From a virus (Duplodnaviria; Caudoviricetes), in IMG/VR virus record IMGVR_UViG_3300044691_000465, positions 1 to 62,874 of that record: DNA of 62,874 bases. One strand, given 5' to 3'. Position numbers and translations under genes: made by a program. The notes under the pieces were generated by a model. That model was not told the DNA's origin, ran no database searches, and worked only from the letters and a program-made list of their open reading frames with translations. Below are positions 44,854 through 62,874 of the stretch, piece after piece. The first letter of the stretch is position 1, and every line of letters starts with the position of its first letter.

Positions 44854-45188
44854 GTACCGTGTATCTGGTGCAGGACACCAAGTGGGTTGACAAGGACGGA
44901 CAGCTGAAGAGCAAGTTCGACTTCAGCGCGGCCACACAATATGGCGAGCTCGTGGAGCTGCTGGAGCCGGGTGCAAGCCCGTTCGATCTGGCGCCGGTGA
45001 TCTACCGCTTGCAAGACCGCTTGCGCAACTTCAGTCGGACCGACTACCTTTTGCTCGTTGGCTCTCCCGTCCTTATTGGGCTTGCAGTAGCGATTGCAGC
45101 CAACTACGGAGACGGAGACGTTGCCATGTTGCAATGGTCCGGTGCGAAACGGCAGTACATTCCCGCGAGAGCCTACGGCATATACTGA
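44850..45188 (+). CDS. Conserved phage hypothetical protein
   Basis: VYLVQ, FD...A..YGE, DYLLLVG.P, LQW. Confidence 0.65.
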   Translation: MSTVYLVQDTKWVDKDGQLKSKFDFSAATQYGELVELLEPGASPFDLAPVIYRLQDRLRNFSRTDYLLLVGSPVLIGLAVAIAANYGDGDVAMLQWSGAKRQYIPARAYGIY

Positions 45189-45241
45189 TTGTTAACCCAG
45201 GGAAACACAGGCAACTTCCCGCTGCAGAAAAGGAACATTCC

Positions 45242-45811: not shown

Positions 45812-45812
45812 A

Positions 45813-45854
45813 TACCGTCACCTGGTTAGTGGTGAGTACGCCCAGCGGGCTAAC
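45813..45854 (+). promoter_or_regulatory. Candidate H-type pseudoknot in the SSB leader
   Basis: S1 TCACC/GGTGA; S2 GTTAGT/GCTAAC. Confidence 0.5.
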
Positions 45855-45876
45855 GAGTGTATAAGGAACGTTTAAC

Positions 45877-46734
45877 ATGGTTGACTTTGCAAAGAAGAAT
45901 GCGGAAAAGGCAGCTGTCTCGACCGAGGTTGCCACCACTGCTGCTGCCCTTCCGGCCGTTGCTGGTGCTTACGACTACGGCGCCGACGCTGGAGTTGGCT
46001 TCGAGGGGACCACTGCCAAGGACCTAAGCATCCCCTTTATCGGCATCCTGCAGTCCAATTCGCCGCAGGTTGAAGACGGTGGCGTTGCTGGTGCCAAACC
46101 CGGCATGCTGATCAACACGGTGACCAACGATCTGATCGACGGCGACAAGGGCCAAGCCTTTATCCCGGTCCATTATGATCGCGCGTTCGTCGAGTGGGTA
46201 CCGCGCACCAAGGGTGGTGGCTTCGTCGGCCTCCATGACATCAACAGCGAGCTGGTGAAGTCCGAGCAGAAGAAGCAGGAAGACACCAAGACGCGTGGCA
46301 AGATCATTCTCGCCACCGGCAACGAGCTGATCGAAACCGAGTACTGCTATTGCCTCACGTTGGACACGGACTTCGTGTCGCCGACTGGCTTCGCGGTGCT
46401 CTCGCTCACGTCGACCAAGCTGACTCCGTTCCGCAAGTTCAAGACTTCGCTGTTCATGCTCAAGGGCAAACCGCCTTTGTTCGTCAACCGCGCCATCCTG
46501 AAGACGGACAAGCAGAAAAACGACAAGGGTACCTTCTACAACGCCAAGTTCGTTCCGGTTGCAGCCGACTGGAAAACCTCGCTGATCCCCAACACAGCCG
46601 AGTTCAAGGACTTGATCGAGGAAGCCAAGTCGTTCCGTGCGATGGTTCTGTCCGGCATGGCCAAGGCCGCGTTCGAAACGCAGAACGTTGCTGGTGATAC
46701 CGGCAGCGGCAACACCGAAGACGCTCCGTTCTGA
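45877..46734 (+). CDS. Putative single-stranded DNA-binding protein
   Basis: DL.IPFI.ILQ..SPQV, NDKG.FY, acidic/aromatic tail EDAPF; located between two helicases. Confidence 0.65.
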   Translation: MVDFAKKNAEKAAVSTEVATTAAALPAVAGAYDYGADAGVGFEGTTAKDLSIPFIGILQSNSPQVEDGGVAGAKPGMLINTVTNDLIDGDKGQAFIPVHYDRAFVEWVPRTKGGGFVGLHDINSELVKSEQKKQEDTKTRGKIILATGNELIETEYCYCLTLDTDFVSPTGFAVLSLTSTKLTPFRKFKTSLFMLKGKPPLFVNRAILKTDKQKNDKGTFYNAKFVPVAADWKTSLIPNTAEFKDLIEEAKSFRAMVLSGMAKAAFETQNVAGDTGSGNTEDAPF

Positions 46735-48809: not shown

Positions 48810-50669
48810 ATGACCCTCCTTCAAAATCCCCACACCTTCCGGAGACCTATTGCCATGGGACCTTCACAGCCTCATTCCGAACAAGTGCATGCCGAAAAGT
48901 ACCGAGGCGACGGTGAAAGTTTCCGGGAAGCAATGGGCCGCATCGCGTCTGGCCTCGCCGACGGCGACGATCACTATCAGGAGTTCCGCGACATACTTCT
49001 CAACATGCGCTTCATGCCAGCAGGGCGCATCCAAGCCGCGATCGGCTCACCGAAGCATATCACGCCGTACAACTGCTTCGTCAGCGGCACCATTCACGAC
49101 AGCTTTGCGCACGGCAACGAGGCTGGCCAGAACAGCATCATGGATATCGCGAAGCAGGCCGCGCAGACGATGCGCATGGGAGGCGGGATTGGTTACGATT
49201 GGAGCACGCTACGTCCATCCGGTGATCTCATACGCGGAGTGCAGTCCAAAACCGATGGTCCCTTGGCCTTCATGCCAATCAACGACGCGGTCTGCAAGGC
49301 GACGTCAAGCGCTGGAAACCGCCGTGGTGCCCAGATGGGCGTGCTGCGTGTCGACCATCCTGACATCTTCAAGTTCATCCGCGCCAAGCAGCCCTCAGAC
49401 GAGATGCAACACCTTTGGGACCTAGTGGACAGCCTTCCGGCCGACTACCCAGGCCGCATGCAGATCGCCAACGCGCTGCAGAAGACGTTGCTGCTCACTG
49501 GCTTCAACATGAGCATTGCGATCACCGATGAGTTCATGGAAGCGCTCGCCGCCAGAAAGTCCTTCGACCTGAAGTTCAACGGCCGGGTGTTCAACACCGT
49601 CGACGCGCACGAGCTCTGGGAAACGATCATGCGCTCCACCTGGGATTGGGCTGAGCCGGGTGTGCTGTTCATTGACACCATCAACCGGATGAACAACCTG
49701 TGGTACTGCGAGAACATCGCGGCGACCAACCCGTGTGGCGAGCAGCCGCTCCCACCGCACGGCGCTTGCCTCCTGGGCTCTTTCAACCTGACGAAGTATA
49801 TCAGGGGCTCAGCTGAAATAAGCGAATGGCACTTCGACATGAAGCAGTTTGTAGCCGACATTCCGGCCGTCGTTCGGGCCATGGACAACGTGGTGGACTA
49901 CGCTCAATATCCGCTGCGTGCCCAAGAAGCGGAGGCTAAGTCGAAGCGCCGGATGGGACTAGGTGTAACCGGCCTCGCCAACGCAGCGGAGGCGCTAGGC
50001 TTTCCATATGGCTCACCGAAGTTCCTGATGTTCGAGCGGCGCGTGCTGCTGGCGCTTAACGAAGGCGCCTACCTTGCCTCGATGCAGCTTGCTCGGGAGA
50101 AGGACGCGTTCCCAATGTTTGACGCTTATCGTTACACCGAAGGCGAGTTCATCAAGAAGCTTCCTCACTACTTGCGCAGTGACATCAAGAAATACGGCAT
50201 CCGCAACAGCCACCTGACGTCGATCGCGCCGACGGGCACCATTAGCTACGTGGCGGACAACGTGAGCTCCAGCATAGAGCCGGTTTTCATGTACAATGGC
50301 CAGCGCAAGATGAAGACCCTGGCAGGCGACGTCGTTGTCGACGTGCAAGATTATGGCCTGCGCGAGTTTGGCGTGCGTGGTCGCATTGCTGACGAAGTTA
50401 CAGCGGACGAGCACGTCGCCGTGCTTGGCGTTGCTTCCAACGCGGTGGACAGCTCGGTGTCCAAGACCTGCAACGTATCGGCTGACATGAAGTGGAACGA
50501 CTTCAAGAACATCTACGTGAAGGCGTACGAGCTGGGATGCAAAGGCGCGACCACGTTTAATCCTGGTGGAAAACGACTTGGAATATTCTTGGCGAAGGCG
50601 CACAAGGACGTCGCCGAAGGGGAAGCGTGTACCTTCGACCCAGAAACCGGGAGGCGAAATTGCGAGTAA
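48810..50669 (+). CDS. nrdJ: Ribonucleotide reductase, class II (adenosylcobalamin-dependent)
   Basis: PAGR, NCFV, GGGIG, RRGAQM, EPGVLFID, TNPCGEQPL, IAPTGTIS, C-terminal C...C; no beta subunit in the window. Confidence 0.85.
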   Translation: MTLLQNPHTFRRPIAMGPSQPHSEQVHAEKYRGDGESFREAMGRIASGLADGDDHYQEFRDILLNMRFMPAGRIQAAIGSPKHITPYNCFVSGTIHDSFAHGNEAGQNSIMDIAKQAAQTMRMGGGIGYDWSTLRPSGDLIRGVQSKTDGPLAFMPINDAVCKATSSAGNRRGAQMGVLRVDHPDIFKFIRAKQPSDEMQHLWDLVDSLPADYPGRMQIANALQKTLLLTGFNMSIAITDEFMEALAARKSFDLKFNGRVFNTVDAHELWETIMRSTWDWAEPGVLFIDTINRMNNLWYCENIAATNPCGEQPLPPHGACLLGSFNLTKYIRGSAEISEWHFDMKQFVADIPAVVRAMDNVVDYAQYPLRAQEAEAKSKRRMGLGVTGLANAAEALGFPYGSPKFLMFERRVLLALNEGAYLASMQLAREKDAFPMFDAYRYTEGEFIKKLPHYLRSDIKKYGIRNSHLTSIAPTGTISYVADNVSSSIEPVFMYNGQRKMKTLAGDVVVDVQDYGLREFGVRGRIADEVTADEHVAVLGVASNAVDSSVSKTCNVSADMKWNDFKNIYVKAYELGCKGATTFNPGGKRLGIFLAKAHKDVAEGEACTFDPETGRRNCE

Positions 50670-50902
50670 CAAACATTATCGTCGGCTTGATGATGCTTCT
50701 GTTCTTTGGAGCTGGCATGGCGCTCGCCAACAAGCTGCACAAGCTGCACCCGTCGATCGGCCTCCAGGTCGATCGTGAACACAAGGGCGACAAGCAGCCG
50801 ATCAAGCTGCGGCCGGAAGGCGATGCCTGGACCTGCTTCGGTGGTGGCCGTTATGAGGCAATGGCCAAGGGCGAAGTCTGCCCCGGCTGGGAAGATCAGT
50901 GA
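50660..50902 (+). CDS. Small exported protein (start uncertain)
   Basis: GGGAGG RBS; signal-like IIVGLMMLLFFGAGMALA; two Cys. Confidence 0.45.
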   Translation: MRVTNIIVGLMMLLFFGAGMALANKLHKLHPSIGLQVDREHKGDKQPIKLRPEGDAWTCFGGGRYEAMAKGEVCPGWEDQ

Positions 50903-51004
50903 AGATATTCCTCTACAAGAGCCAATGGTGCCGCGCCGATCTACGTGCGCTGGCGCAGAAGTGGGTTGGCATCGACAACGTTCACCTGTGCAAGGATTTA
51001 CCCC

Positions 51005-51352
51005 ATGAGAATGCTAGTGTGCGGCGGCCGGAACTACGGAGACTTCACTCGGCTGGCGATGATACTCGATCAGATCAATAACGATGGCGTGAAGGTCAGC
51101 GTTGTGATCGAAGGCGAAAGCCGGGGCGCTGACAAGCTTGCTGCCCTTTGGGCTTCACGTCGCAGCATTCCTCTGGAACCGTATCCGGCGGACTGGGACC
51201 GTTGGGGCATGGCTGCTGGTCCCAAACGCAATAGACAAATGCTGATTGAAGGCAAGCCCGATCTGGTTGTTGCTTTCCCCGGTGGCGACGGAACAGCCGA
51301 CATGGTTCGCCAAGCTCGCAAAGCGGGTGTTCGCGTTAGGGAAGTGGTGTGA
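51005..51352 (+). CDS. DUF2493 / YspA-like SLOG family protein
   Basis: LVCGGR.Y, IEGE.RGAD, AGPKRN..ML and AFPGG.GT.DM. Confidence 0.85.
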   Translation: MRMLVCGGRNYGDFTRLAMILDQINNDGVKVSVVIEGESRGADKLAALWASRRSIPLEPYPADWDRWGMAAGPKRNRQMLIEGKPDLVVAFPGGDGTADMVRQARKAGVRVREVV

Positions 51353-51825
51353 TGGAAGCGACACAGGAAGAGCTCGACCGCTTTATGTCCTACGTGGACA
51401 AGCTGCCCAACGGCTGCTGGTATTGGACCGGAGGCCGTTCACGCGGCAAGGGTAACAAGAAGTGGTACGGCACGTTTTGGTTTCGTGGCAAGTCGATCCG
51501 CGCACACCGCTTCTCAGCCGACTACATCGGCAAGTTCGAGCCTCTGCCCAAGGGCAAGCACCGTGATCATCTTTGCGTTTTCTCAATGTGCGTTTGCCCG
51601 GAGCACCTGGAGCACACCACGCCGGAAGTCAATCAAGAGCGCAAGATCGAACGCCTTGCAACCGCTTGCTCGGACGGACTGGACCGCCTGAAGGCGCTTG
51701 GCCTGTGGCCGTTTGATGAGCCAGACTATTCGCTGCCGGTTGGCCAAACAACGTTCTGCTACGGCGACCCGGTGAGCCACGAGGCTGACAAATATCGCTA
51801 CGGCATGACATTAACCAGACGTTAA
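51352..51825 (+). CDS. HNH endonuclease
   Basis: CWYWTG, YG.F, AHRFS, DHLC....CV.PEHL......N. Confidence 0.85.
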   Translation: MEATQEELDRFMSYVDKLPNGCWYWTGGRSRGKGNKKWYGTFWFRGKSIRAHRFSADYIGKFEPLPKGKHRDHLCVFSMCVCPEHLEHTTPEVNQERKIERLATACSDGLDRLKALGLWPFDEPDYSLPVGQTTFCYGDPVSHEADKYRYGMTLTRR

Positions 51826-51896
51826 CGATGCTGAGAACCGCCTGTTGTCTTTTGCGAAAGTTCAAGGCATGAATGGCCATCGTTTCAGAAAAGGAG
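51811..51896 (+). promoter_or_regulatory. Full CtrA-type box TTAA-N7-TTAAC (51811-51826), -35 TTGTCT (51845) and RBS AGAAAAGGAG
   Basis: TTAACCAGACGTTAAC; 19 bp to the -35. Confidence 0.72.
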
Positions 51897-51905
51897 ATCG
51901 GAACT

Positions 51906-52559
51906 ATGACAGCCCAAACCGTCGTCATTTTTGGCAACCAGACCTATACCTACGAAGGCCTCTTTACCCTCTCCGGCCCAGAGCTCACCAAGCTGCACAA
52001 TGAAGCCGCGCACAAGGTTGGTGTTGAACCAACCAAGCGCTTCAGCGACAAGCTGTCTGCGGCCAAGCGCACCTGGGCCGTGCTCCTGAAGGTTGCCGCT
52101 GGCACCGAAGCCACCGTTGCAACCGCACCGTCGGAGCTGGTCAAAGCGGCCACCGTCGAGAAGGTTGTTGTGCCCGAAGCAGAGCGCGACGTGCTGGTGG
52201 TGAAGCCCAAGGCCCTGAAGGCTGAAAAGCCTGCCAAGGCGCCGAAGGCACCCAAGGAGAAGAAAGAGGCTGCACCGCGCAAGCCGCGCGGCAAGCGCTT
52301 CGTATTTCCGAAGGGCGACGAGCTGAAGAAGGTCCGCGAAGGCACCTTCCGCGCCACGCTCGTCAAGATGCTCTCCCGCGAGCAAGGCGCCACGTTCGGC
52401 CAGTGCCTGGGTGCCACTTGGGGCCAGAAGGCCGGAATGGATGCTGAGACCGCCGAAAAGACCTGCTACGAGGCCATGCGGCTGCTCCACTACTATTGTG
52501 GCTACGGCATGCGCCACCTGGACCAGAGCGAAAACCCGCATATCCAAATCTACTTCTAA
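51906..52559 (+). CDS. Lys/Ala-rich protein with C-terminal DUF3489-like winged HTH
   Basis: KAPKAPK linker; LVKMLSREQGATF. Confidence 0.6.
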   Translation: MTAQTVVIFGNQTYTYEGLFTLSGPELTKLHNEAAHKVGVEPTKRFSDKLSAAKRTWAVLLKVAAGTEATVATAPSELVKAATVEKVVVPEAERDVLVVKPKALKAEKPAKAPKAPKEKKEAAPRKPRGKRFVFPKGDELKKVREGTFRATLVKMLSREQGATFGQCLGATWGQKAGMDAETAEKTCYEAMRLLHYYCGYGMRHLDQSENPHIQIYF

Positions 52560-53067
52560 TGGGAAGGCATCTCTACATGCGCTTCGAAAACCTCGCCAAG
52601 CCAGCGGCTGAAAAGCCGCTGGCGTTTCCGGACCACGCTATCATTCCGAACAAGACCATCACGTTCGACGATGCCGCGCTGGCCTGCCAACGCGCTTGCG
52701 CTGACTGCAAGTTCTACCGCTTGGGCTTTAGCCGCTCCTGCAGCGCACTACCGCTCCAGCATTGGCACGCGGTGAGCGGTTGGCTTACAAGCGATCCGCA
52801 GTTTAATCGTGATGAGCCGGATCGGTGTGGTCGCGAGGGCAAGCACTGGCGCCCAAAGCTGTGGTACCGCCTGAAGGGCTGGCTGCGATGAACGCGCGAG
52901 CAGCGGCCATCGCCGAAGGTTGGTTCGACTGGTTTGGCTATTGGTATTTCCTGGACCCGGTACGGTTCGTGGAAGAGGTGGCCCGGCCGTTTTATTTCAG
53001 AGGCACCGCGCGGGAGCTGTGCTTAGCACAAGGGATTGAGTTCCATGACGAGCAAGCGAAACTATGA
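52559..53067 (+). other. Two small hypothetical ORFs (52559-52891 Cys-containing; 52888-53067)
   Basis: TAATG and ATGA overlaps. Confidence 0.5.
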
Positions 53068-53971
53068 GCGGTTGGCGATCGAGGACTTCGGCAAGCACCT
53101 GCTTGAGAGCGGCGACCTGGACCCGATCTACATCGCGTTGCGCAAGACCTTCGTGCACCCGGCAGGCAGCATCCCAGCGCTGAAGCGTTGGATGGTGGCC
53201 TACTGGTGCCTCTACCACGCTGGCACGGCCTGCTACCTCAGCGACTTCGAGGGCCGTGAGTTCTGGCTTGAGCTCAAGAAGGCCGCAGCCAACACCGAGC
53301 TCTCGCCCACTGGCGAGCGCTGGCAGCGCGGCCACGAGCGTCGCCACTTCCGGGGCGAGGCCAGCGTGAAAGCCGTCCGTACGATGATGGGGCGGTACCT
53401 TGATAACCCGGCCGACTTAGTCAATGTGATCATCGGCGACGATGAAGGCCGCGACATGGATCGGCCCTTCATGGAAATTTCGCAGCGCGCCCAGGAGCTG
53501 CCTCTCTTTGGGCCATGGATTGGTTTCAAGGTTGGAGACATGATCGACCGCGTGCTCGGCATACCAATCGACTTTGACAACGCAGCCGTGTTCATGTTCG
53601 ACGACCCGACGAAGGCCGCGCTCCGGCTCTGGCGTCTCAAGGCCGGCATTCACGAGCGCTATGATACCAACGGCAAGGTGTCCAAGGTGCAGGTGACGCC
53701 CAAAGACAAAGACAAGGCAATCAATCAGGTTGTGGACTATCTGATTGAACACTTCCGTAATTTCCAGGCACCTCCGCTTGGCGATCGGCCGGTTGGTCTG
53801 CAGGAGGTGGAAACCATCCTGTGCAAGTGGAAGAGCCATATGAACGGGCATTACCCGCTCTACAACGACATCGACGAAATCAACGACGGGATCAAGCCAT
53901 GGGTGAAGCACAGCCAGACCGCGCTAAATTTCGCAGCAGCCATGCCGCAAAACCCGGCACGCAAAACCTAG
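53045..53971 (+). CDS. Amino acid:DNA transferase (aGPT-Pplase family) for thymidine hypermodification
   Basis: GDLDPIY, AYWCLYH, ERRHFRG, FGPWIGFK..DM and ETILCKWKSH..GHY. Confidence 0.85.
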   Translation: MTSKRNYERLAIEDFGKHLLESGDLDPIYIALRKTFVHPAGSIPALKRWMVAYWCLYHAGTACYLSDFEGREFWLELKKAAANTELSPTGERWQRGHERRHFRGEASVKAVRTMMGRYLDNPADLVNVIIGDDEGRDMDRPFMEISQRAQELPLFGPWIGFKVGDMIDRVLGIPIDFDNAAVFMFDDPTKAALRLWRLKAGIHERYDTNGKVSKVQVTPKDKDKAINQVVDYLIEHFRNFQAPPLGDRPVGLQEVETILCKWKSHMNGHYPLYNDIDEINDGIKPWVKHSQTALNFAAAMPQNPARKT

Positions 53972-54089
53972 TACGTGGCGACAATTACTTTCGCCAGCTC
54001 TACTATGCAGCGGAGTTGGAGCTCATGCGCCATGATCAGCTTGTCTCCGAGGGCTACTTGTTCTTTCAAGACGGCTACTGGAGACCGTG

Positions 54090-54719
54090 ATGCGCTTGAA
54101 CAATTTCATATTCCGCTGGCGCCTTGCACGCCGCAACCGGCTCCAGGAGTGGCACACCAAGTTTCTCTGGTGGCCACGCGACGTGTTCTGGCAAGAAGGG
54201 GATTGGGGCTACCACTGGCTTATCCACGTGCAGCGTCGCCGCTGCTACGGCCACTGGTTTGATCAGTACTACACCGAGTATCGTCGGCTGGAGCGGATGT
54301 GGTGACCACGTGCACGATCAAACACTTCTCCAGCCTGGGTGGTGGCGGGACCAACATTTGGATCGAGCACGAGGGCAAGCGCTACTATTCCCGCGTCAAC
54401 TACATAATCCAAAACAGCACTGGCATGCAGAACCTCTGCATCATGGAATTTCATAAACGGAGAAAGATATATGGCACGTACTGACGCGGAGATCGAAGCA
54501 GCGATTGTGCTTCACAAAAAGATCAGGACCAACGGCCTGCAGCGCGCCATTGACATTATGGAGCCGACGGAGAAGGCCTATGCACGTCGGCTGATCTGCC
54601 ACGCGCTGGAGGACATGATTGCACCGAAGGTTACAGCTGGCGAACCGCAGTCCCACTCCGATGGCACGCCAGCGCGGCCGGACCTTGGCCTGCTACGTGG
54701 CCGTGGCGGAGAAGCCTGA
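54090..54719 (+). other. Three small hypothetical ORFs inside the modification cluster (54090-54305, 54299-54484, 54471-54719)
   Basis: Overlapping ORFs with RBS-like sequences. Confidence 0.45.
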
Positions 54720-55618
54720 TGCACGTTCACCTCGAAGGCATGGGCCTGCAAGGTTCGCTGCTCGCCCACCGGCTCAGCATGTATGGTGTGCCGTTCACGT
54801 GGCACGATATCAACCGCACGGAGACCGCGTGGAAGGCCTCCACCGGCGCAATCTACCCGGCCGACAGTACCAACCACGGTCCAGACCGCGATGCCTACAC
54901 GGTTTGGAAATCGTGGTACGAGCACGGCTACTTTGAGAAAGAGTTTCTCGAGCGCTCCGGTGGCATGGTGTTCTGCACTAAGCAGCCACCGCACAAGGGC
55001 AAGTACAAGTTCACCGAGCTCCCAGGCAACCTGCGCTTGGGCGAGCAGCCCTCGTTCCACTTCAACGCGCAGACCTTCGTGAAGACACAGCAGCACCATT
55101 GGCGGAGTGGCCGAAAGCAGGGACCCGTTACCGCTGACATGCACATTGTCACGCACGGTTGGGGCATGCGTCTTGGGCACGCCTATTGGGGCTGGACCCG
55201 GCTTGTGAAGCTGGCCTATCCACGCGTGATGCAGCCTGAAGAACACCACCGGCCTGCGTTCTACTTCCGGCCGAACCGTTACATGATGGCCTATGCCTAT
55301 CCCGTTCCAGGAACCGATTGGTACTACGCTGGCAGCTCCATCATGAAGCAGGCCAAAGACAAGCTGCACGAGCTGCCGATCGTTCCGAAATATGATCGCT
55401 GGAAAAAGACCTTCGAGGATATTGCCCAGGGGCAGGTCATGGTGAAGGAAGAAGGCGAGTACCTCACTGGCTGGCGCCCCGCTGCTGCCGACGAAGATAC
55501 AGCCTGGGTACGCCGCAAGGGCAACGTGCTGCTCATGCGCCCGCTCTGGAACAGCGGCATTCGCCACTTCCCCGTGCAATGGGCTGGCGTTGCCACACAG
55601 CTAGGATTGATACCATGA
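54719..55618 (+). CDS. FAD-dependent oxidoreductase/lyase (DAO-like)
   Basis: N-terminal GMGLQG Rossmann motif, AS.GA, TGWRP. Confidence 0.75.
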   Translation: MHVHLEGMGLQGSLLAHRLSMYGVPFTWHDINRTETAWKASTGAIYPADSTNHGPDRDAYTVWKSWYEHGYFEKEFLERSGGMVFCTKQPPHKGKYKFTELPGNLRLGEQPSFHFNAQTFVKTQQHHWRSGRKQGPVTADMHIVTHGWGMRLGHAYWGWTRLVKLAYPRVMQPEEHHRPAFYFRPNRYMMAYAYPVPGTDWYYAGSSIMKQAKDKLHELPIVPKYDRWKKTFEDIAQGQVMVKEEGEYLTGWRPAAADEDTAWVRRKGNVLLMRPLWNSGIRHFPVQWAGVATQLGLIP

Positions 55619-55812
55619 AGGCGATCGGCGGAGTTCCAACACCGAACCCGGATTGGGAGAAGGTGACACACGGCCCTGAGACCCGTCGTCTCATGGTTCC
55701 CGGAGGATGGCTTTATTTCGTATCGCCTTCTCATATGGAACCTTGTCTAGTTTTTGTCCCGGAACCAAAGCAAGGCGATTGAAGACCCTGACTTTCCCGC
55801 TATTGTTGCGGG

Positions 55813-56253
55813 ATGGCTTACAGGTTCGCCCAGGTTGACACAGACGAAGATGATGTGGTGGAGCTCCTGACCGAGCTCCATCTGCACACCTTTGGTGGCG
55901 CGGAAGAGGCGCCCTTGCCTCTGTGGGAGAACGGGCACTGGTGGATCGGCTGGGAACAACGTTCCGCCACACCAGCGGCCTTCTGCGGCATCACCCAATC
56001 CATACTCGGACCCGGTATAGGCTACCACAAGCGCGCTGGCGTCGTGAAGGGCCACTATGGCAATGGCCTGCAGCGCAGGATGATCCGACTGCGCGAGCGG
56101 AAAGCACGCTCTCTGGGCTTCACCCAAATTGTCACCGACACAACTAACAATTGGCGTTCCGCTAACAACCTGATTGCGGAGGGATACCGCTTGTGGGCAC
56201 CTGTGTATCCCTGGGCGTTCGAGGAAACGCTCTACTGGCGAAAGTTTCTCTAA
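55813..56253 (+). CDS. GNAT acetyltransferase
   Basis: V...HYGNGLQRRMI acetyl-CoA motif; N..SANNLI..GY. Confidence 0.85.
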   Translation: MAYRFAQVDTDEDDVVELLTELHLHTFGGAEEAPLPLWENGHWWIGWEQRSATPAAFCGITQSILGPGIGYHKRAGVVKGHYGNGLQRRMIRLRERKARSLGFTQIVTDTTNNWRSANNLIAEGYRLWAPVYPWAFEETLYWRKFL

Positions 56254-56268
56254 AGAAAAGGATAGGAC

Positions 56269-56508
56269 ATGTTTGTCACCATCGTTGCACTCATGTGCAT
56301 GACAACTGGTAACGTGCCGTTCTGCCGGGAAGAAATCGTTACCGACAGTTCCATCTCGGAGAACATCACGTTCTTCAGCTGCGCCAACGGCGCCCAGGCA
56401 CCATTGGCAGAATGGAAAGCCAACCACCCGGTCTACCGCAACGAGAATTGGACCATCAAGCGGTACATCTGCGTGCCCGGACACTACGTGATCAAGGACG
56501 CGATCTGA
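56269..56508 (+). CDS. Small Cys-containing, probably exported protein
   Basis: MFVTIVALMC...C.EEIVTD...SC...Q..LAEW...HP...C; AGAAAAGGA RBS. Confidence 0.65.
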   Translation: MFVTIVALMCMTTGNVPFCREEIVTDSSISENITFFSCANGAQAPLAEWKANHPVYRNENWTIKRYICVPGHYVIKDAI

Positions 56509-56981
56509 TGCAAGGCCATCTCGGCGATAATGTTCGCCCGTTCAAGCCCTCCAGCGGAGGTGGTGGCTCCAAGAAGGGCAAACCCCAATGGCACTGGCCT
56601 TGGGTTTTGAAAGCCATTGCTGACGCTATCTTTGAGCGAGCAAAAGGTTCAAGCGATGCTTGGAAGACAGATCGCAGCGCGCGACTGAGCCTTGCTCAAT
56701 TCAAAGACCGCATGGACGATATTGCGCCCGGCTGGGAAGACTACTGCAGCGCGGTAGGAGGCCATCGCGCTACGCCTTGGGCTGAGCTGCTTCACAATCG
56801 TGTTTACAAGATGCATTATTCTGGCACTAGCGATCGCGGTGTTGGCCACAGCCCAGAAACGCGCGCTTGCGATAGCAGTGAGCACTTGACCAAGCATTAC
56901 CACGTTAGCAGCCCGATGGCGAAATTGCACCTCGCCGTGGTGCGTGGCGAAACACGTGTAGACTGGAAATCATTCCTATGA
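56508..56981 (+). CDS. Hypothetical protein
   Basis: TGATG coupling. Confidence 0.5.
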   Translation: MQGHLGDNVRPFKPSSGGGGSKKGKPQWHWPWVLKAIADAIFERAKGSSDAWKTDRSARLSLAQFKDRMDDIAPGWEDYCSAVGGHRATPWAELLHNRVYKMHYSGTSDRGVGHSPETRACDSSEHLTKHYHVSSPMAKLHLAVVRGETRVDWKSFL

Positions 56982-57235
56982 TCATCGTTCGAGTAGAGCT
57001 CTTGTCGGCCATCACTGGCAAGACAACCGAGCTGGCGCGCATGGACCTGTGCAACATCGGTGGCACCAGGAACAGCGGCGATTACTCGGTGCAGGCCATG
57101 CGAGGCCGCGACCACGCGACGTTGTCGAAAAGGATTGCACAGCGAGAAGGCAAAGTGTTAGGTCACCCGCGACTTTCCCAGCACGTCTGGTATCTCGTTG
57201 CCAAAGCCCTAAAGGCGCTCAGCTATGATCATTAA
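56978..57235 (+). CDS. Conserved phage hypothetical protein
   Basis: MI.V.VEL, NIGGT...GDY, PR....VW.LV.KAL. Confidence 0.65.
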   Translation: MIIVRVELLSAITGKTTELARMDLCNIGGTRNSGDYSVQAMRGRDHATLSKRIAQREGKVLGHPRLSQHVWYLVAKALKALSYDH

Positions 57236-57797
57236 CATCCGTGGCACGTCCGGCTCTGGCAAGAGCACGCTGGTACGAAACGTTACCGCGCTCTATCAGG
57301 CCCGCTTCCCGGTAAAGGTTGTCGGCCGCAAGCAGCCGATTGGCTACATTCACCAGTGCGGTACCGGCAAGAGCCTTGCTGTTGTGGGGCATTACGAGAC
57401 AGACTGTGGTGGCTGTGATACCATCGCCAACATGGACGAAATCTATGACAAAGTCCGGGAAGCGCACGCCGCTGGAATGGATGTTCTTTACGAAGGACTT
57501 CTCATTAGCGCCGATGCTAATCGAGTTATCGCTTTACATACTGACGGGCTTCCTGTTCGCGTCATTGCGCTGAACACGCCGCTGGACGTCTGCCTCGCCA
57601 GTGTCAACCACCGGCGCCGTAACACTGCCATGATCAAAGGCAAGGAATACAAAGGCGACGTCAATCCCAAGAACACCACGAGCAAGTTCGCTGGCGTTAA
57701 GTCCAGCCTGAAGCGGATCGAGGCCGCTGGCATTCCCAACAGCTGGGAGAGCCGCGAGAGCGCGCTGGCGCTGATCCGCACGGAGTTCAACCTATGA
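57225..57797 (+). CDS. P-loop kinase, putative 5-hmdU DNA kinase
   Basis: IRGTSGSGKST, GHYE..CGGCD and VLYEG; next to the dUMP hydroxymethylase. Confidence 0.82.
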   Translation: MIINIRGTSGSGKSTLVRNVTALYQARFPVKVVGRKQPIGYIHQCGTGKSLAVVGHYETDCGGCDTIANMDEIYDKVREAHAAGMDVLYEGLLISADANRVIALHTDGLPVRVIALNTPLDVCLASVNHRRRNTAMIKGKEYKGDVNPKNTTSKFAGVKSSLKRIEAAGIPNSWESRESALALIRTEFNL

Positions 57798-58690
57798 GCC
57801 AGGACATTTTCTTCGAGACGGCGCGCGAGCGCTATCGCATGATGCTGCGCAAGAACATTGCGGCAGAGGCTGACACCATCCTGCAGGATACAATCCTAGA
57901 CCGGCGCTGGTCTGATGATCCCATCTTCCAGGAGTTTCGCTTCTGCAACGTGTTTCGCGAAGACGACAAGGTCACCAAGTGGTTTCGCGAACACGTCCGC
58001 AACCCTTTGGGCGCAAGGCGAGCGGACCAAGTTCGTGCTGCCGTGGTGTTCCGTTGGTTCAACAACATCGCCACGGGCGAGCAGCTGGAAACATTCTTCC
58101 TGTTAGAGAATTGGAGGCATGAAGAGGCACGAGGCCTCGTGCAGCTGATGGCCGATCGCGGTGAACGCATTCTCAACCCGGCATATATGATCAAGTCGCC
58201 GCCAGGGATGAACAAAACAACCGGCCTGTTCCAGTGCATTGCCAACGTGCTCGACGACCTGGAGATGATCACCACCGAGATGATGGAAGGCTCCAGCCTG
58301 CAGAAGGCGCACACGCTGCTCCAGCGCTACCCGTACCTTGGCCCCTTCATGGCCTACCAGATGATCTGCGACCTTCGCTTCACCGGAGTGCTCGGCCACG
58401 CCACCGACATCAACACCTGGACTGCCCCTGGGCCAGGGTCTGCACGCGGCGTTGGTCGCATGTTCTTCAGTGATGTGGCAAGATACAACTATAACAGCGA
58501 GCGCGACCAGGAGCTGCTTTGCGACAAGATGCGCTACCTTCTTGAGTGCAGCCGGGAAGCAACCTTCTGGCCAACGGAATGGCCCAAGTGGGAGCTGAGC
58601 ACCGTGCAGCATTGGTGTTGCGAGTACGACAAGTACATGCGCGTCCTGTTGGGTGAAGGAACGCCGAAACAGAGATACCGTCCCGCGTAG
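57794..58690 (+). CDS. aGPT-Pplase-family helical protein (5-hmdU kinase-associated / second transferase-like)
   Basis: DPIFQEFRFCNVFREDD, FRWFN, GPFMAYQ..CDL, GPGS.RG and CEYDKY. Confidence 0.85.
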   Translation: MSQDIFFETARERYRMMLRKNIAAEADTILQDTILDRRWSDDPIFQEFRFCNVFREDDKVTKWFREHVRNPLGARRADQVRAAVVFRWFNNIATGEQLETFFLLENWRHEEARGLVQLMADRGERILNPAYMIKSPPGMNKTTGLFQCIANVLDDLEMITTEMMEGSSLQKAHTLLQRYPYLGPFMAYQMICDLRFTGVLGHATDINTWTAPGPGSARGVGRMFFSDVARYNYNSERDQELLCDKMRYLLECSREATFWPTEWPKWELSTVQHWCCEYDKYMRVLLGEGTPKQRYRPA

Positions 58691-58727
58691 TTGGCTTCTA
58701 ATGGCGCTACAGAAAAGGAATTGTCCC

Positions 58728-59729
58728 ATGCACGTTATCAATGTACGCAACGTTCACGACGCGTTGCCGGAAGCACTGCGCGAGCTGGCCCGACTGCCCA
58801 ACGGTGGCGTGCAGCGAGAGACGCGCAACGGCGCCGTGCGCATGTTCCCCATGCCAGTCACCACGGTGTACAGCGAGCCAACCGAGCGGGTTATGTTCCA
58901 CCCGGAACGCGACTGCAACCCGTTCTTCCACCTATACGAGAGCCTGTGGATGTTGGCCGGAAGGCGAGACGTGAAGAGCGTTGCGCACTATGTCAAGCGC
59001 ATGGCCGACTTTAGCGATGATGGTGTGAACTTCCATGCAGCCTACGGCTACCGCTGGCGCAAGCACTTCAAATTCGACCAGATCAGTCGCATCATCAAAG
59101 CGCTGAGCACCAACCCAGATGACCGCCGCTGCGTGCTCCAGATGTGGGACGCCAAGGTCGACCTTGGGCAGGAGGGCAAGGACTTCCCCTGCAACACCAT
59201 CGCCACGTTCAGCGTCAACTGGCTTGGCAAAGTTGACATGACCGTGTTCAACCGCTCCAATGATATCGTGTGGGGCGCTTACGGCGCCAACGCTGTGCAC
59301 TTCTCCATGCTGCAGGAATACATTGCAGCCTCGATCGGCCGGGAGACCGGCATGTACTTTCAAGTCTCAACCAATTTCCACGGCTACCTTCAGACGTTGG
59401 AGCCCGTGCTTGAGCTTGTGAACTCATACGACAATCCGTACAAGATGGACGAAGTGAAGCCCTTCCCGATCATGACCGAAGGGCAAGCGGCGTTCGACCT
59501 GGACCTGTCAACGTACCTGGCACGTGGGCCAATCGTCGGCTTCAGCACCGCGTTCTTCCGGAAGGTTGTAACGCCAATGCATTGGGCGCACGAGGCCTAC
59601 AAGGCCGGTGGCGTCGATCGTTTCATCAATGCCATGGAAATCCTGAACCAATGCGAGGCCACTGACTGGCGCCGCGCGGCGATGGAGTGGATCATAAGGA
59701 GGCAACTCAATGCACAACGTTTCCGTTAA
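58728..59729 (+). CDS. Thymidylate synthase-family dUMP hydroxymethylase
   Basis: NPFFH..E.LWML.G, AYG.R, DRR.VL, catalytic PCN, RSND..WG..GAN (Asn indicates dUMP), NFH.Y. Confidence 0.88.
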   Translation: MHVINVRNVHDALPEALRELARLPNGGVQRETRNGAVRMFPMPVTTVYSEPTERVMFHPERDCNPFFHLYESLWMLAGRRDVKSVAHYVKRMADFSDDGVNFHAAYGYRWRKHFKFDQISRIIKALSTNPDDRRCVLQMWDAKVDLGQEGKDFPCNTIATFSVNWLGKVDMTVFNRSNDIVWGAYGANAVHFSMLQEYIAASIGRETGMYFQVSTNFHGYLQTLEPVLELVNSYDNPYKMDEVKPFPIMTEGQAAFDLDLSTYLARGPIVGFSTAFFRKVVTPMHWAHEAYKAGGVDRFINAMEILNQCEATDWRRAAMEWIIRRQLNAQRFR

Positions 59730-60270
59730 GAAGCTCGCCGAAAGCGTCGTCCAGAGCCGCTCCGGCGGCAAGGTGGAGCGCTGCCACGGCCTCCCACACC
59801 ATGGCACCTACAGCAACGCGGCGCACCAATGGGGCGTGGCCATGCTGATGCATTACCTCTGGCCGGATGACTTTCCGCGCCTCGCGCTGGTGTGCCTCTC
59901 GCACGACGTTCCGGAAGCCTGGGTAGGCGACATTCCGGCGCCGACGTGCCGCTATATGCCTGGGCTAAAGGAAGGCCTGAACGAAGCGGAGGGCAACATC
60001 AACGAGGACCTGCTGCTGCCTGCTGAGCACAAGCTAGAGGCGATCGACTACGCCAAGCTGAAGTGCTGCGACCGGCTTGAGTTCTGGCTTTGGTGCTGTG
60101 AGCAGGAGCTCTACGGCAACCTCTACGCCAAGGAAGGCCGCAAGGAGATCGAACGCTACTTCGTCGAGGTGCCGCTGCTTCCTGAAGCCCAGGAGCTGTT
60201 CATGGAAATGCGTTCCATGGACCTGCTGCCGGTGCAGGCTGGTGTTATGAAGGCCGCGTTCGGCGGATGA
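59710..60270 (+). CDS. HD-domain 5'-deoxynucleotidase (YfbR-like)
   Basis: V.R.H, S.A.H, HDVPE...GDIP.P and K..DRLE. Confidence 0.85.
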   Translation: MHNVSVKKLAESVVQSRSGGKVERCHGLPHHGTYSNAAHQWGVAMLMHYLWPDDFPRLALVCLSHDVPEAWVGDIPAPTCRYMPGLKEGLNEAEGNINEDLLLPAEHKLEAIDYAKLKCCDRLEFWLWCCEQELYGNLYAKEGRKEIERYFVEVPLLPEAQELFMEMRSMDLLPVQAGVMKAAFGG

Positions 60271-60410
60271 AGATAGAGCTCGCACCAGTGCGCGCCGAAG
60301 ACGGAAGCGTGTTGCTCTTTGACATCTTCGTCGATGGCGTTTGGCACGGGTCGCGGAGGCTTGAACGTCACTGCATTCAATATTTACGGGAGCTGAAACA
60401 TGTCCGCTAA
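60267..60410 (+). CDS. 47-aa hypothetical protein
   Basis: ATGA overlap; FDIFVDGVWHGSRR. Confidence 0.45.
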   Translation: MKIELAPVRAEDGSVLLFDIFVDGVWHGSRRLERHCIQYLRELKHVR

Positions 60411-60810
60411 TTCAAAACAAATCGGTGGGAGCCACTACGCCGCGTCGCTTCAACATTGGGACATGATTGAAGAACACGGTATTGGCTACCTCGAAGGCTG
60501 TGCCTCGAAGTATGTCAGCCGCTGGCGCAAGAAGAACGGCCTCCAGGACCTGGAGAAGGGCCTGCACTATACCGAGAAGCTGATTGAGCTCGCCATGCCG
60601 ATCCAAGGACGCCACACGCGGCATCCCCGCGGCATCGTTCCGTTGGACGTTATTCAACGGTTCGTGATTGCCAACGAATTGGAGTTCATCGATCATGCCA
60701 TCCTCACCGGACTTCTCCGGTGGAAGGAAGTTTCCGAGCTTCAACTCGCTGCGGTTCATTTCCAGCAGCTCATTCAAGAGGTTAAGAATGGCACGGCACA
60801 CAAGGTATGA
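60400..60810 (+). CDS. DUF3310 family (putative nucleotide kinase) protein
   Basis: QIGGSHY, QHWD, GYLEG...KY..RW.KKNG.QDLEK..HY. Confidence 0.85.
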   Translation: MSANSKQIGGSHYAASLQHWDMIEEHGIGYLEGCASKYVSRWRKKNGLQDLEKGLHYTEKLIELAMPIQGRHTRHPRGIVPLDVIQRFVIANELEFIDHAILTGLLRWKEVSELQLAAVHFQQLIQEVKNGTAHKV

Positions 60811-61297
60811 GGCTATCCATCATTTCGTCAGCGAAGAAAGTCGGGCGGCTTTTCTGGAGTTGACAAATGGTTTGCTCCGGAAGGACGCTGGCGAATATGT
60901 TCATACGCGCACAGGTGACCCGGAAGACGAGCAGTTTCATTACCAACGGCGCCTTGGTATAGCTCTGTTGACCGCGTTCAAGCGCCCTAATCAGAGCGTT
61001 GAGCTCGAAGACTTCATGATTGCAGCTGCGGACTTTAAGTATCACAGCGTTGCCAGCGTGAAAAGTTATCTGCATGAAATGGCTAACGAGGGTGTTGTGG
61101 CTTCGCATGGGCGTGGGCATAACTCTTGGTATCTCACGAAAGAATTTAAGAATGACCCAGCTTCCCCTGTTCGCTCCGACGTCGACGTGGTCGCCACCCG
61201 ACATGAGCTGCCTTCCGGACTGGAGCTCAGCGAAGCGGGTAGCCATCGATGTGGAGACCAAGGACATTCACATCAAGACCCTGGGCATCGGGGTTAG
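60788..61297 (+). CDS. Hypothetical protein, possible winged helix; overlaps the polA start
   Basis: GAGG RBS; SVKSYL.EM..EG.V...G.G..SWY. Confidence 0.45.
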   Translation: MARHTRYEAIHHFVSEESRAAFLELTNGLLRKDAGEYVHTRTGDPEDEQFHYQRRLGIALLTAFKRPNQSVELEDFMIAAADFKYHSVASVKSYLHEMANEGVVASHGRGHNSWYLTKEFKNDPASPVRSDVDVVATRHELPSGLELSEAGSHRCGDQGHSHQDPGHRG

Positions 61298-62874
61298 GCG
61301 CGGCGGTTACATCACTGGCTACTCGTTCGCGATCGAGGATGGCCCCAAGCACTACCTGCCTGTTCGGCACGCTGGTGGCGACAACCTGGACGCCATTCAG
61401 GTTCGGCGCTACCTTCGGGCGCAGGCAGAGAAATTCAAGGGTGACTTCGTCGGCGCGAACCTCGCGTACGACATGGACTACATGCTCTCCGAGGGCATTG
61501 ATTGGAAGCACGTGCGCTACTGGCGCGACGTGCAGGTGGCTGCACCGCTAATCAACGAGCTCCACGACCGCTTCAGCCTGCAGCACATCTGCGAGCGCTA
61601 TGGCTTGCCGGGCAAGGACGAGGCCGTTCTGCGTGAGGCAGCGCGTGCCTACAACGTCGATCCGAAAGGTGGCATGTGGCAGCTTCCAGCCCGCTTTGTT
61701 GGGCAGTATGCAGAGGCCGATTGCGAGCAGCCACTGCTGGTATCACGGAAACAAGAACGGGAGATCGACGATGAAGGGCTGTGGAAAATCTATAACCTTG
61801 AAAGTCAGGTGCTCCCGGTGCTCGTCCGGATGCGGCGACGTGGTGTGCTTATCGATCAAACGAAGCTGGAGCAGATCGAAAACTGGTCCCTCGCCCAAGA
61901 GGCAGCAGCGCTTGACCAAGTTCGAGCAGCGACTGGTGTCAAGATTAATGTCGGAGACGTTTGGAAGGGCGATGTTCTTGCTCCCGCGCTCGAAGCAATT
62001 GGTATCAAGCTTGAGCGTACTGCAAACGGTAAGCCCTCCATTCGCAAGGATGTGCTAGCCGACGTCAACCACCCGGTGGCCGACGCGTTGGCTCGTGCGC
62101 GCAAGGTGAACAAGCTGCGCACCACGTTCGCTGCCTCCATCCGCCGTTATATGACCAATGGCCGCATTCACTGCACGTTCCACCAGATCGCGCGAGAGGA
62201 CGAAGACACGGGCGACCAACGCGGCGCGCGCTATGGGCGCCTCAGCTGCGTCGACCCGAACATGCAGCAGCAACCAAGCCGCGACGAGTTTGCCAAGGAG
62301 TGGCGGTCGATCTACATCCCAGAGCCGGACACGCTTTGGGCCTCGAACGACTACAGCCAGCAAGAGCCACGCTGGACAACGCACTTCGCTGCAATCGCTA
62401 AGAAGGGTGGCCTTCCTGGCGCGCTGGAGGCCTGTGCTGCCTACCACGCGGACCCGCTGCTGGACAACCACCAGTTCATGGCGGACCTGACCAAGCTGCC
62501 CCGCAAGTTCGCGAAGAACATCTACCTTGGCCTCTGCTATGGTGAAGGTGGCGCAAAGCTGGCCCGCGACTGCGGCTTGCCTACTCGTTGGGCTTGCGCT
62601 CTGGGCGGATGGAAGAACAGGGAATTGTTCTACTTTGAAGACCGCAACGATGCGATAGCCAAACGCCAGGATGCAGGTGAGGGCTATGTTTTTGAAACCG
62701 CTGGCATCGAGGCACAGAAGATTATTGACACCTTTGACGAGCGTGCACCGTTCATCAAGCAGCTGGCGGACTTTGCCAAAGACCGCGCTAACAAGAACGG
62801 TTTCATCATCACGGGAGGCGGACGCAAACTGCACTTCCCGCAGAAGGTGGACGGAAGTTTTGATTGGTGTCACA
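61152..62874 (+). CDS. polA: Family A DNA polymerase with 3'-5' exonuclease (runs off the window end; absent from the ORF track)
   Basis: Translated by hand: MTQLPLF..., IDVETKD (ExoI), NLAYD, YAEAD, GRLS...PNMQQQP, motif A DYSQQEPR, motif B RKFAKNIYLGLCYG. Confidence 0.93.
   Translation, partial: MTQLPLFAPTSTWSPPDMSCLPDWSSAKRVAIDVETKDIHIKTLGIGVRRGGYITGYSFAIEDGPKHYLPVRHAGGDNLDAIQVRRYLRAQAEKFKGDFVGANLAYDMDYMLSEGIDWKHVRYWRDVQVAAPLINELHDRFSLQHICERYGLPGKDEAVLREAARAYNVDPKGGMWQLPARFVGQYAEADCEQPLLVSRKQEREIDDEGLWKIYNLESQVLPVLVRMRRRGVLIDQTKLEQIENWSLAQEAAALDQVRAATGVKINVGDVWKGDVLAPALEAIGIKLERTANGKPSIRKDVLADVNHPVADALARARKVNKLRTTFAASIRRYMTNGRIHCTFHQIAREDEDTGDQRGARYGRLSCVDPNMQQQPSRDEFAKEWRSIYIPEPDTLWASNDYSQQEPRWTTHFAAIAKKGGLPGALEACAAYHADPLLDNHQFMADLTKLPRKFAKNIYLGLCYGEGGAKLARDCGLPTRWACALGGWKNRELFYFEDRNDAIAKRQDAGEGYVFETAGIEAQKIIDTFDERAPFIKQLADFAKDRANKNGFIITGGGRKLHFPQKVDGSFDWCH

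Follow-up and report, generated by a model that had tools for sequence, protein, structure and literature searches.

Gene content of the cluster

The DNA analyzed here, referred to as the window, is the complete IMG/VR record IMGVR_UViG_3300044691_000465, a linear metagenomic sequence of 62,874 bases from an uncultured virus. Positions 53045 to 60810 carry a cluster of plus-strand genes that is predicted to hypermodify the thymidine of the viral DNA by way of 5-hydroxymethyl-2'-deoxyuridine (5-hmdU), as in phage PaMx11. What is known at this locus is a PaMx11-like cluster for thymidine hypermodification; what is new is a pair of tailoring proteins that are not orthologous to those of PaMx11 and, above all, the family to which the first of them belongs, a predicted flavoprotein family that we call FAD299 after its 299-residue member in the window.

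The first gene of the cluster (53045 to 53971) encodes an amino acid:DNA transferase of the ADDT/aGPT-Pplase2 type (PF18724, E = 3.2e-22; phrog_6364, E = 4e-103), predicted to be a glycine:DNA transferase. Its open reading frame (ORF) spans positions 53036 to 53971, and the ATG at 53045 aligns with the start of PaMx11 gp46. It is followed by the gene for FAD299 (54719 to 55618) and by a gene (55813 to 56253) for GNAT146, a 146-residue GNAT-fold acyltransferase that is a candidate N-acetyltransferase of 5-aminomethyl-2'-deoxyuridine (5-NmdU). Next come a P-loop 5-hmdU DNA kinase (5-HMUDK; 57225 to 57797), which has a Walker A motif and matches the Pfam family HMUDK_HMUD1 weakly (E = 0.0012, under the cut-off), and the helical partner of the kinase, HMUDK_hel (57794 to 58690; PF18723, E = 4.1e-40), with an overlap of 4 nucleotides between the two genes. 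The rest of the cluster consists of a thymidylate synthase homolog of the M6/PaMx11 dUMP hydroxymethylase type (58728 to 59729; PF00303, E = 2.7e-22; phrog_5131, E = 1.8e-122), in which homology starts at 58728; a YfbR-like HD-domain 5'-deoxynucleotidase (59710 to 60270; PF12917, E = 4e-7; phrog_6047, E = 3e-36); and a DUF3310 protein (60400 to 60810; PF11753, E = 8e-7; phrog_5839, E = 1e-35), which also matches phrog_236, "nucleotide kinase" (E = 9e-16). Based on homology and context, the thymidylate synthase homolog is predicted to be a hydroxymethylase rather than a methylase.

An original prediction, made from the DNA letters without database searches, had listed these genes, and every one of them is present on the plus strand at the positions given above, with polA as the next gene. 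One label has to be changed. The gene at 57794, described in that prediction as a second aGPT-Pplase-family helical protein, is present, but Pfam now assigns its product to the 5-hmdU DNA kinase helical domain (PF18723) rather than to a second transferase. This domain was formerly an aGPT-Pplase clade, and some phage annotations, e.g., that of phage Sonora, still give HMUDK_hel and the transferase the same label, "alpha-glutamyl/putrescinyl thymine pyrophosphorylase."

When the proteins of PaMx11 and M6 were compared with the window by tblastn, the transferase was 52% identical to PaMx11 gp46 and 51% identical to M6 gp51, and the thymidylate synthase homolog was 53% identical to PaMx11 gp51 and 52% identical to M6 gp58. 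The HD nucleotidase (36% to PaMx11 gp52 and 35% to its M6 counterpart) and the DUF3310 protein (36% to PaMx11 gp53 and 38% to M6) are likewise about as close to one phage as to the other. The kinase has 52% identity to PaMx11 gp49 (E = 5e-56) versus 29% to the M6 kinase, and the helical partner has 43% identity to PaMx11 gp50 versus 29% to M6. The gene order from the transferase through polA is identical to that of PaMx11 gp46 to gp55. A radical S-adenosylmethionine (SAM) domain (PF04055) is not matched anywhere in the record, and tblastn with M6 gp52, a pyridoxal phosphate (PLP) enzyme, and M6 gp53, a radical SAM enzyme, detected no homologs (E = 3.4 and 2.8). Both the claim that the window has no PLP decarboxylase or radical SAM gene and the claim that the cluster is of the PaMx11 type (transferase, flavoenzyme, and acetyltransferase) rather than the M6 type are thus borne out. 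Upstream of the cluster are a single-gene ribonucleotide reductase with 60% identity to M6 gp46 and a homolog of M6 gp49 and PaMx11 gp45.

FAD299 is predicted to be a compact DAO-fold flavoprotein

FAD299 has an N-terminal GxGxxG motif. It has no Pfam match even at an E value of ≤10 and no PHROG match. The AlphaFold2 model built from a 39-sequence alignment is of high quality (pLDDT, 95.4; pTM, 0.91), and its best Foldseek matches in the PDB are iminodiacetate oxidase IdaA (E = 7e-13), D-amino-acid oxidases, sarcosine oxidase, and glycine oxidase. We compared the model with the top 1000 Foldseek matches by VIA-align. The Z scores were 22.6 for D-amino-acid oxidase (1c0k), 21.5 for CmiS2, 20.9 for IdaA, 20.7 for glycine oxidase, and 19.0 for MnmC, and the best matches (Z up to 22.6) cover 276 to 281 of the 299 residues. 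The Z score to PaMx11 gp47, also called NGTO (chain 8z79_C), is 18.5, with a root mean square deviation of 3.0 over 237 residues. The feature neighbors of FAD299 in the ESM Atlas are DAO-family and ThiO clusters (score, 0.97). In the 39-sequence alignment, G9, G12, and D30 are invariant, G7 is conserved in at least 90% of sequences, and D30 lies at the end of strand 2. Based on the model and these conserved residues, we place FAD299 in the GR2/DAO fold class as a compact protein that forms a family of its own and would be expected to bind flavin adenine dinucleotide (FAD). Several of its structural matches cleave N-carboxymethyl secondary amines.

FAD299 also has a candidate substrate-binding residue. 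The family has an invariant G-W-R-P sequence and a conserved C-terminal glycine motif, and the gp47 family has an invariant G-I-R242-P-Y244 sequence. Wen et al. 2024 (PMC11472151) propose that Arg242 of gp47 binds the carboxylate of the glycine. The arginine of the FAD299 motif would be equivalent to Arg242, as judged by motif and position and not by structural superposition. FAD299 as an ortholog of gp47 was rejected by BLASTP, profile-sequence, and profile-profile comparisons, and tblastn of gp47 on the window gave an E value of 0.41.

FAD299 genes are found next to transferase and kinase genes

A profile search of 1.84 billion representative sequences found 216 FAD299 members at an E value of ≤1e-3. 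The family is sharply bounded, since 205 of these are at ≤1e-10. Precomputed Pfam domains are absent from all of the 120 relatives listed. In IMG/VR, an alignment-based scan turned up 22 FAD299 loci, a number that includes near-duplicates (L010/L011/L012/L022, L016/L017, and L020/L024), so that the independent count is smaller; their neighboring genes were identified by tblastn with window, PaMx11, and CaiB proteins. A transferase gene is directly upstream of the FAD299 gene in 21 of the 22 loci (L021 begins at the match), and a P-loop kinase gene is directly downstream in all 22. None of the 22 contains a gp47 homolog detectable by tblastn. The most similar relatives in IMG/VR are 52% identical for FAD299 and 51% identical for GNAT146.

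These loci are of two types. Type A loci (nine IMG/VR loci and L108) resemble the window and contain a transferase, FAD299, kinase, helical partner, thymidylate synthase homolog, HD nucleotidase, DUF3310 protein, and polA. L108, a phage-like contig in a metagenome-assembled genome of the Gammaproteobacteria, is the only contig with FAD299 that was found in a search of a species-genome collection. Type B loci (the other 13) contain a transferase like that of Gordonia phage CaiB, FAD299, and a Ploopntkinase3-type kinase, and 7 of the 13 have a detectable Tet/JBP dioxygenase. The slots flanking FAD299 also gather mobile or unrelated genes in the relatives, e.g., a GIY-YIG endonuclease gene before FAD299 in L015 (7528 to 8001) and a gene for a DUF4031 protein in L006 (6237 to 6641).

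Among cultured phages, FAD299 homologs were found only in seven Gordonia phages and one Rhodococcus phage, with 33 to 36% identity. In CaiB, genes 1 to 5 encode a ParB-like protein, a Tet/JBP-like protein, an ADDT protein, a Ploopntkinase3 protein, and the FAD299 homolog (36%); genes 2 to 5 are at 801 to 3926 of locus L002. Homologs of the CaiB gene 5 type are annotated only as "oxidoreductase" or "hypothetical." The CaiB announcement describes the first four genes as nucleotide-modification enzymes, and the fifth is absent from its list (PMC9302106). ParB-dependent T-dioxygenase clusters have been linked with GATases, with P-loop kinases, and with amino acid:DNA transferases (AADTs) in a 2026 PNAS paper (PMC13229309), whose main text contains neither "FAD" nor "oxidoreductase." No description of FAD299 was found in the main text of the papers on these clusters that we searched. 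These Gordonia and Rhodococcus phages probably hypermodify T beyond the amino-acid adduct.

Three predicted proteins among the profile matches, all of them longer than is usual for the family, join FAD299 to other enzymes of the pathway. In P0166 (456 residues, from a 114-kb NCBI contig), FAD299 is followed by a GNAT domain (PF00583, E = 1e-7), which resembles PaMx11 gp48 (BLASTP, 31% identity over 78 residues, E = 1e-7) and not GNAT146. In P0226 (643 residues), FAD299 is followed by a P-loop kinase, and the domains are joined by long low-complexity linkers. P0293 (1060 residues, a cluster-mate of P0226) has an ADDT domain at residues 34 to 251, FAD299 at 413 to 709 (36% identity to the window protein, E = 3e-49), and a kinase. 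These are gene calls on metagenomic contigs and may contain frame errors, but taken as they stand they link FAD299 with the transferase, the kinase, and a gp48-type acetyltransferase. In PaMx11, gp47 yields a free amine and gp48 acetylates that amine (Lee et al. 2021, PMC8989533), so a fusion with a gp48-type acetyltransferase is the pattern expected if FAD299 carries out the gp47 step.

The window transferase is predicted to be of the glycine type

Wen et al. named 12 active-site residues in PaMx11 gp46 (PMC11472151). Eleven of these are retained in the window transferase (Asp24, Tyr47, Tyr51, Glu92, Trp146, Lys150, Glu243, Thr244, Cys247, Asp262, and Glu265), and the only change is Lys261 to Asn. 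In the YuA glycine transferase, the donor pocket is made up of D24, E96, K159, K248, Y257, and D262, and putting K248 and Y257 into a diamine transferase switched its donor to glycine (2026 NAR paper on α-dapT, PMC13458397). A four-way alignment shows that the window transferase has all six pocket residues as well as the catalytic Cys, and M6 gp51 carries the six residues at exactly the YuA numbers. When the transferases were scanned for a Lys...Tyr motif following the catalytic Cys, it was present in those of the window, PaMx11, M6, eight of the nine IMG/VR loci of type A, and L108; L014 gave no match. As judged by these residues, the window transferase is glycine-type, and because it retains both the glycine-type pocket and the active-site residues, Nα-glycinylthymidine (Nα-GlyT) is the expected intermediate.

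The type B transferases differ at this point. In CaiB (L002) and 12 loci (L009 to L012, L016 to L020, and L022 to L024), an Asp is directly after the catalytic Cys, at the Lys248 position. Since Asp replaces Lys248, the transferases of these Tet/JBP clusters may use a different donor molecule. Because the FAD299 family also follows these Asp-pocket transferases, FAD299 probably trims Nα-linked adducts in general and is not strictly specific for Nα-GlyT.

Proposed pathway

We propose that the cluster encodes thymidine hypermodification on an M6/PaMx11 chassis in which non-orthologous proteins have taken the place of the two tailoring enzymes encoded between the transferase and the kinase, an interpretation to which we assign a probability of about 0.6. 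The thymidylate synthase homolog would make 5-hmdUMP, and 5-hmdU would be incorporated into DNA instead of T, a step in which the HD nucleotidase and the DUF3310 protein would assist. The P-loop kinase and its helical partner would then convert 5-hmdU in DNA to its phosphorylated form, 5-PmdU, and the transferase would swap the phosphate for glycine to give Nα-GlyT. FAD299 would oxidize the N-Cα bond of the appended glycine, and hydrolysis of the imine would release glyoxylate and leave 5-NmdU. In the last and weakest step, GNAT146 would probably N-acylate the amine to give 5-acetylaminomethyl-2'-deoxyuridine (5-AcNmdU) or a closely related acyl form. Overall, the most likely route runs from T through 5-hmdU, 5-PmdU, and Nα-GlyT to 5-NmdU, possibly followed by N-acetylation. 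From the presence and homology of the genes, the folds, the conserved catalytic and pocket residues, the neighborhood statistics, and the predicted natural fusions we deduce the final base, the use of FAD as a cofactor, and the chemistry of each step.

The original prediction had recognized the FAD and GNAT proteins by generic motifs, and both calls hold at the level of the fold; it did not foresee that neither protein would be an ortholog of its PaMx11 counterpart or that the FAD protein would belong to a separate family. For GNAT146, Pfam gives only a GNAT match with an E value of 0.026, and PF00583 is carried by 18 of the 31 relatives listed. Its AlphaFold2 model (pLDDT, 95.6) has only GNAT acetyltransferases as top Foldseek matches (TM-score up to 0.78), and the glycine-rich G-x-G loop between β4 and α3 is conserved together with the helix that follows it, G83 being invariant.

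The results that weigh against the proposed pathway concern mainly its last step. GNAT146 was rejected as an ortholog of gp48 (BLASTP, E = 0.058 over 14 residues; hhalign probability, 3%; tblastn, E = 0.23). Our IMG/VR scan found 122 GNAT146 relatives. When the region of ~8 kb around the best 80 of these was examined, none of the 80 loci contained the transferase, kinase, helical partner, FAD299, or thymidylate synthase homolog, and GNAT146 was accordingly rejected as a marker of the pathway. Pfam analysis of two of these neighborhoods (L028 and L085) found replication-type genes, e.g., genes for a 5'-3' exonuclease and a 5'-nucleotidase. Conversely, GNAT146 is found in none of the 22 FAD299 loci in IMG/VR, and there is no GNAT gene between FAD299 and the kinase in the nine type A IMG/VR loci or L108. 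The FAD299 and kinase genes adjoin in 8 of these 10 loci, where no ORF of appreciable size separates them, and the other two have unrelated inserts. The window GNAT146 gene is itself flanked by other inserted ORFs, in a slot that takes up unrelated genes in the relatives (the GIY-YIG endonuclease and DUF4031 genes mentioned above), and it is not translationally coupled to the FAD299 gene. Among cultured phages, only Limnohabitans phage YIMV22061 has a GNAT146 relative.

These observations are what would be expected if the pathway stopped at 5-NmdU and GNAT146 were an unrelated inserted moron, acetylating a protein or a small molecule, that had landed in a variable slot. We consider this explanation unlikely, although it has to be taken seriously. 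The position of GNAT146 is exactly that of gp48 in the syntenic PaMx11 cluster, and gp48-like GNAT proteins have joined FAD299 independently, as the P0166 fusion and as a gene adjoining FAD299 in L023. In addition, four close relatives of GNAT146 (P0124, P0126, P0127, and P0128; 57 to 71% identical) and four relatives of FAD299 (P0003, P0002, P0021, and P0017) have longest contigs of equal size (36106, 2767, 65768, and 9589 bases), which suggests that the two share contigs, although equal size is the whole of this evidence and its weakness counts among the points against acetylation. A metagenome scan for relatives that carry FAD299 and GNAT146 together gave two distant loci only. We conclude that acetylation by GNAT146 has roughly even odds. 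The acetylation claim of the original prediction retains the GNAT fold and the gp48 slot, but with pathway genes in 0 of 80 family loci it is much less secure than was implied.

Other results bear on the FAD299 step. The comparison with PaMx11 profiles that had been suggested for the FAD and GNAT proteins went against orthology for both of them. BLASTP aligns only the first 32 residues of FAD299 with gp47 (E = 0.021), and hhalign of the 39-sequence FAD299 alignment with gp47 or with a 34-sequence gp47-family alignment matches 30 to 35 N-terminal columns with probabilities of 9% and 14%, respectively. Furthermore, gp47 is only number 46 among the structural matches of FAD299, and a shared fold alone is no proof of a shared function; that FAD299 does what gp47 does is predicted from fold, context, and fusions. 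FAD299 could instead carry out other flavin chemistry, on the thymine-methylene side or on a substrate other than Nα-GlyT, or GNAT146 could transfer a non-acetyl acyl group, so that the final base would be one not yet described. In addition to the lack of sequence relationship to gp47, the presence of FAD299 after Asp-for-Lys248 transferases (12 type B loci and CaiB) and the five small interleaved ORFs without an assigned function in the window cluster would fit such an explanation. However, the window transferase has the full glycine pocket, the closest structural matches of FAD299 carry out N-Cα oxidation of the gp47 type, and the predicted fusion to a gp48-like acetyltransferase implies a free amine product, as in PaMx11. 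We therefore regard a different chemistry as improbable.

It is highly improbable that the cluster is inactive or decayed and that virion DNA has ordinary T or only 5-hmdU, because, even though the record is a metagenomic contig with polA cut at its end, all pathway ORFs are intact with a gene-like GC content at third codon positions (GC3), the catalytic residues are conserved, and both tailoring families are under clear conservation.

Small ORFs, flanking genes, and origin of the record

The original prediction had also noted several ORFs interleaved with the pathway genes. These ORFs do exist in the sequence, although GC3 makes only some of them look coding. Three plus-strand ORFs between the transferase and FAD299 are gene-like (54087 to 54305, GC3 of 0.78; 54299 to 54484, 0.74; and 54471 to 54719, 0.66), and the last of these overlaps the start of the FAD299 gene by 1 nucleotide. 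Between GNAT146 and the kinase are plus-strand ORFs of 79 residues (56269 to 56508; GC3 of 0.78) and 85 residues (56978 to 57235; 0.70; phrog_8231, E = 1e-9) and a doubtful one of 189 residues (56412 to 56981; 0.54). The overlapping ORFs at 53975 to 54262 and 54124 to 54456 have GC3 values of ~0.5 and are probably non-coding, and those at 55579 and 56412 are doubtful or look non-coding. No Pfam match was obtained for any of the small interleaved ORFs; their only PHROG matches are phrog_8231 (the 85-residue ORF) and a weak one to phrog_14288 (a 67-residue ORF), neither of which gives a function, and they have no homologs in the related loci (22 IMG/VR loci and L108). Two long minus-strand ORFs, one of 333 residues opposite FAD299 (54578 to 55579) and one of 245 residues opposite GNAT146 (55747 to 56484), are most likely by-products of the high GC3 of the coding strand and not genes. 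A promoter and terminator scan of 50500 to 61300 found fewer sites than in shuffled sequences.

Upstream of the cluster, the stretch from 50945 to 51825 encodes a YAcAr/SLOG-family protein (PF10686, E = 3e-18) and weakly matches the zinc loop of a His-Me (HNH-like) homing endonuclease (PF05551, E = 7e-4, short of the Pfam cut-off); the genes of this stretch have no counterpart at that position in M6 or PaMx11. Between an SNF2 helicase and a Dda-like helicase, two genes at 45134 to 46734 match Pfam families that take their names from cyanophage Pam3 (gp33-like DUF7307 and Pam3_Gp34).

Downstream of the cluster is the family A DNA polymerase gene polA (61074 to 62873, plus strand; PF00476 and phrog_17), which is a neighbor of the pathway and not part of it and which is cut by the end of the record. 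The polA product of L005 is 68% identical to that of the window and ~75 residues longer. Circular permutation was considered as the reason for the cut gene and rejected, since reading across the ends of the record (61074 to 62873 plus 1 to 11) gives a stop after three codons and no homology. The record thus ends inside polA despite a CheckV completeness estimate of 100%, and this is not a simple circular permutation.

The record has a GC content of ~58% and no tRNA genes. Even its closest cultured relatives are distant. By polA they are the sewage phage "Simon" (64%), followed by Bordetella phages CN2 and FP1 and YuA-like Pseudomonas phages (~55%), and by a head protein they are Pseudomonas and Xanthomonas siphoviruses (~50%). 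A DNA-level search with the cluster region matched 103 phage records, including 73 from Pseudomonas and 14 from Bordetella phages, all with 60 to 80% identity and coverage of ≤20%. The window had been described as an apparent alphaproteobacterial phage, but the hosts of its nearest cultured relatives are Pseudomonas, Bordetella, and Xanthomonas, and nothing indicates an alphaproteobacterial host.

Comparison with known systems

Thymidine hypermodifications shield phage DNA from restriction and other nucleases and are a source of enzymes that edit bases within DNA. The main interest of the locus described here is FAD299 rather than the final base of the window DNA, since FAD299 represents an unannotated DAO-fold family that stands in place of gp47, occurs on two chassis and in cultured actinophages, and is found in predicted fusions with its partners. 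Published surveys annotate such clusters by Pfam and are blind to FAD299. Clusters that appear to have a transferase plus a kinase only, including those of Tet/JBP and Gordonia DR-cluster phages, probably have a hidden oxidative trimming step and, rather than an amino-acid adduct, probably a derivative of aminomethyl-uracil as their final base. FAD299 also adds to the toolbox a compact predicted DNA-base amine oxidase of 290 to 300 residues with predicted fusion partners. In a broader interpretation, which we regard as speculative and on balance doubtful, FAD299 is a second lineage of DNA-acting flavin "lyases" that cannot be recognized from sequence and that occurs even within one transferase-oxidase-kinase polypeptide. 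It would be the main tailoring partner of ADDT proteins across phages of Proteobacteria and Actinobacteria, trimming a glycine adduct in the window and adducts of another donor where Asp stands in for Lys248, while the window GNAT protein comes from an unrelated phage family and the final N-acyl-aminomethyl-dU is not necessarily acetylated.

Known structural parallels to FAD299 act on other substrates. The MnmC oxidase domain converts cmnm5U in tRNA to nm5U, and MnmC, glycine oxidase ThiO, IdaA, and CmiS2 all carry out oxidative loss of an N-carboxymethyl group as glyoxylate. FAD299 shares with these four enzymes the two-domain GR2/DAO fold (Z of 19 to 21.5 over ~275 residues). It differs from them in sequence (11 to 15% identity), in being ~60 to 70 residues shorter, and in its presumed substrate, which is a base in duplex DNA.

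The Tet/JBP clusters (PMC13229309) and the DR-cluster phages of Gordonia, e.g., CaiB (PMC9302106), are like the window in having a FAD299 homolog (36% identity) directly after the transferase or the kinase. In contrast to the window, where the thymidylate synthase homolog would supply 5-hmdU, the Tet/JBP clusters make it post-replicatively with a Tet/JBP enzyme. They also have a Ploopntkinase3-type kinase and an Asp at the Lys248 position of the transferase.

In the M6/YuA pathway, which leads to 5-(2-aminoethyl)-2'-deoxyuridine (5-NedU), the glycine transferase gp51 is followed by the PLP enzyme gp52, the radical SAM enzyme gp53, and the kinase gp54. The window resembles M6/YuA in having the single ribonucleotide reductase gene (60% identity), the gp49 homolog, the transferase with identical glycine pocket residues, and the thymidylate synthase homolog followed by the HD nucleotidase, the DUF3310 protein, and polA. 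It differs in having no PLP or radical SAM gene and in the kinase and helical partner, which have only 29% identity.

The closest known system is the 5-AcNmdU pathway of PaMx11, which consists of the gp46 transferase, the flavin-dependent lyase gp47, the gp48 acetyltransferase, the gp49 5-HMUDK, gp50, and gp51 (PMC8989533 and PMC11472151). In both PaMx11 and the window, a DAO-fold flavoprotein and a GNAT protein occupy the same two slots, and the chemistry that we propose for the window is the same. The two differ in that gp47 matches Pfam DAO, whereas FAD299 matches nothing; in ~1.7 kb of extra small ORFs in the window; and in the ribonucleotide reductase, which in the window is the single-gene M6 type, unlike that of PaMx11. 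Across the three cases, the transferase-kinase slot behaves as an exchangeable cassette, which holds PLP and radical SAM enzymes in M6, gp47 and gp48 in PaMx11, and, in the window, FAD299 with or without a GNAT protein.

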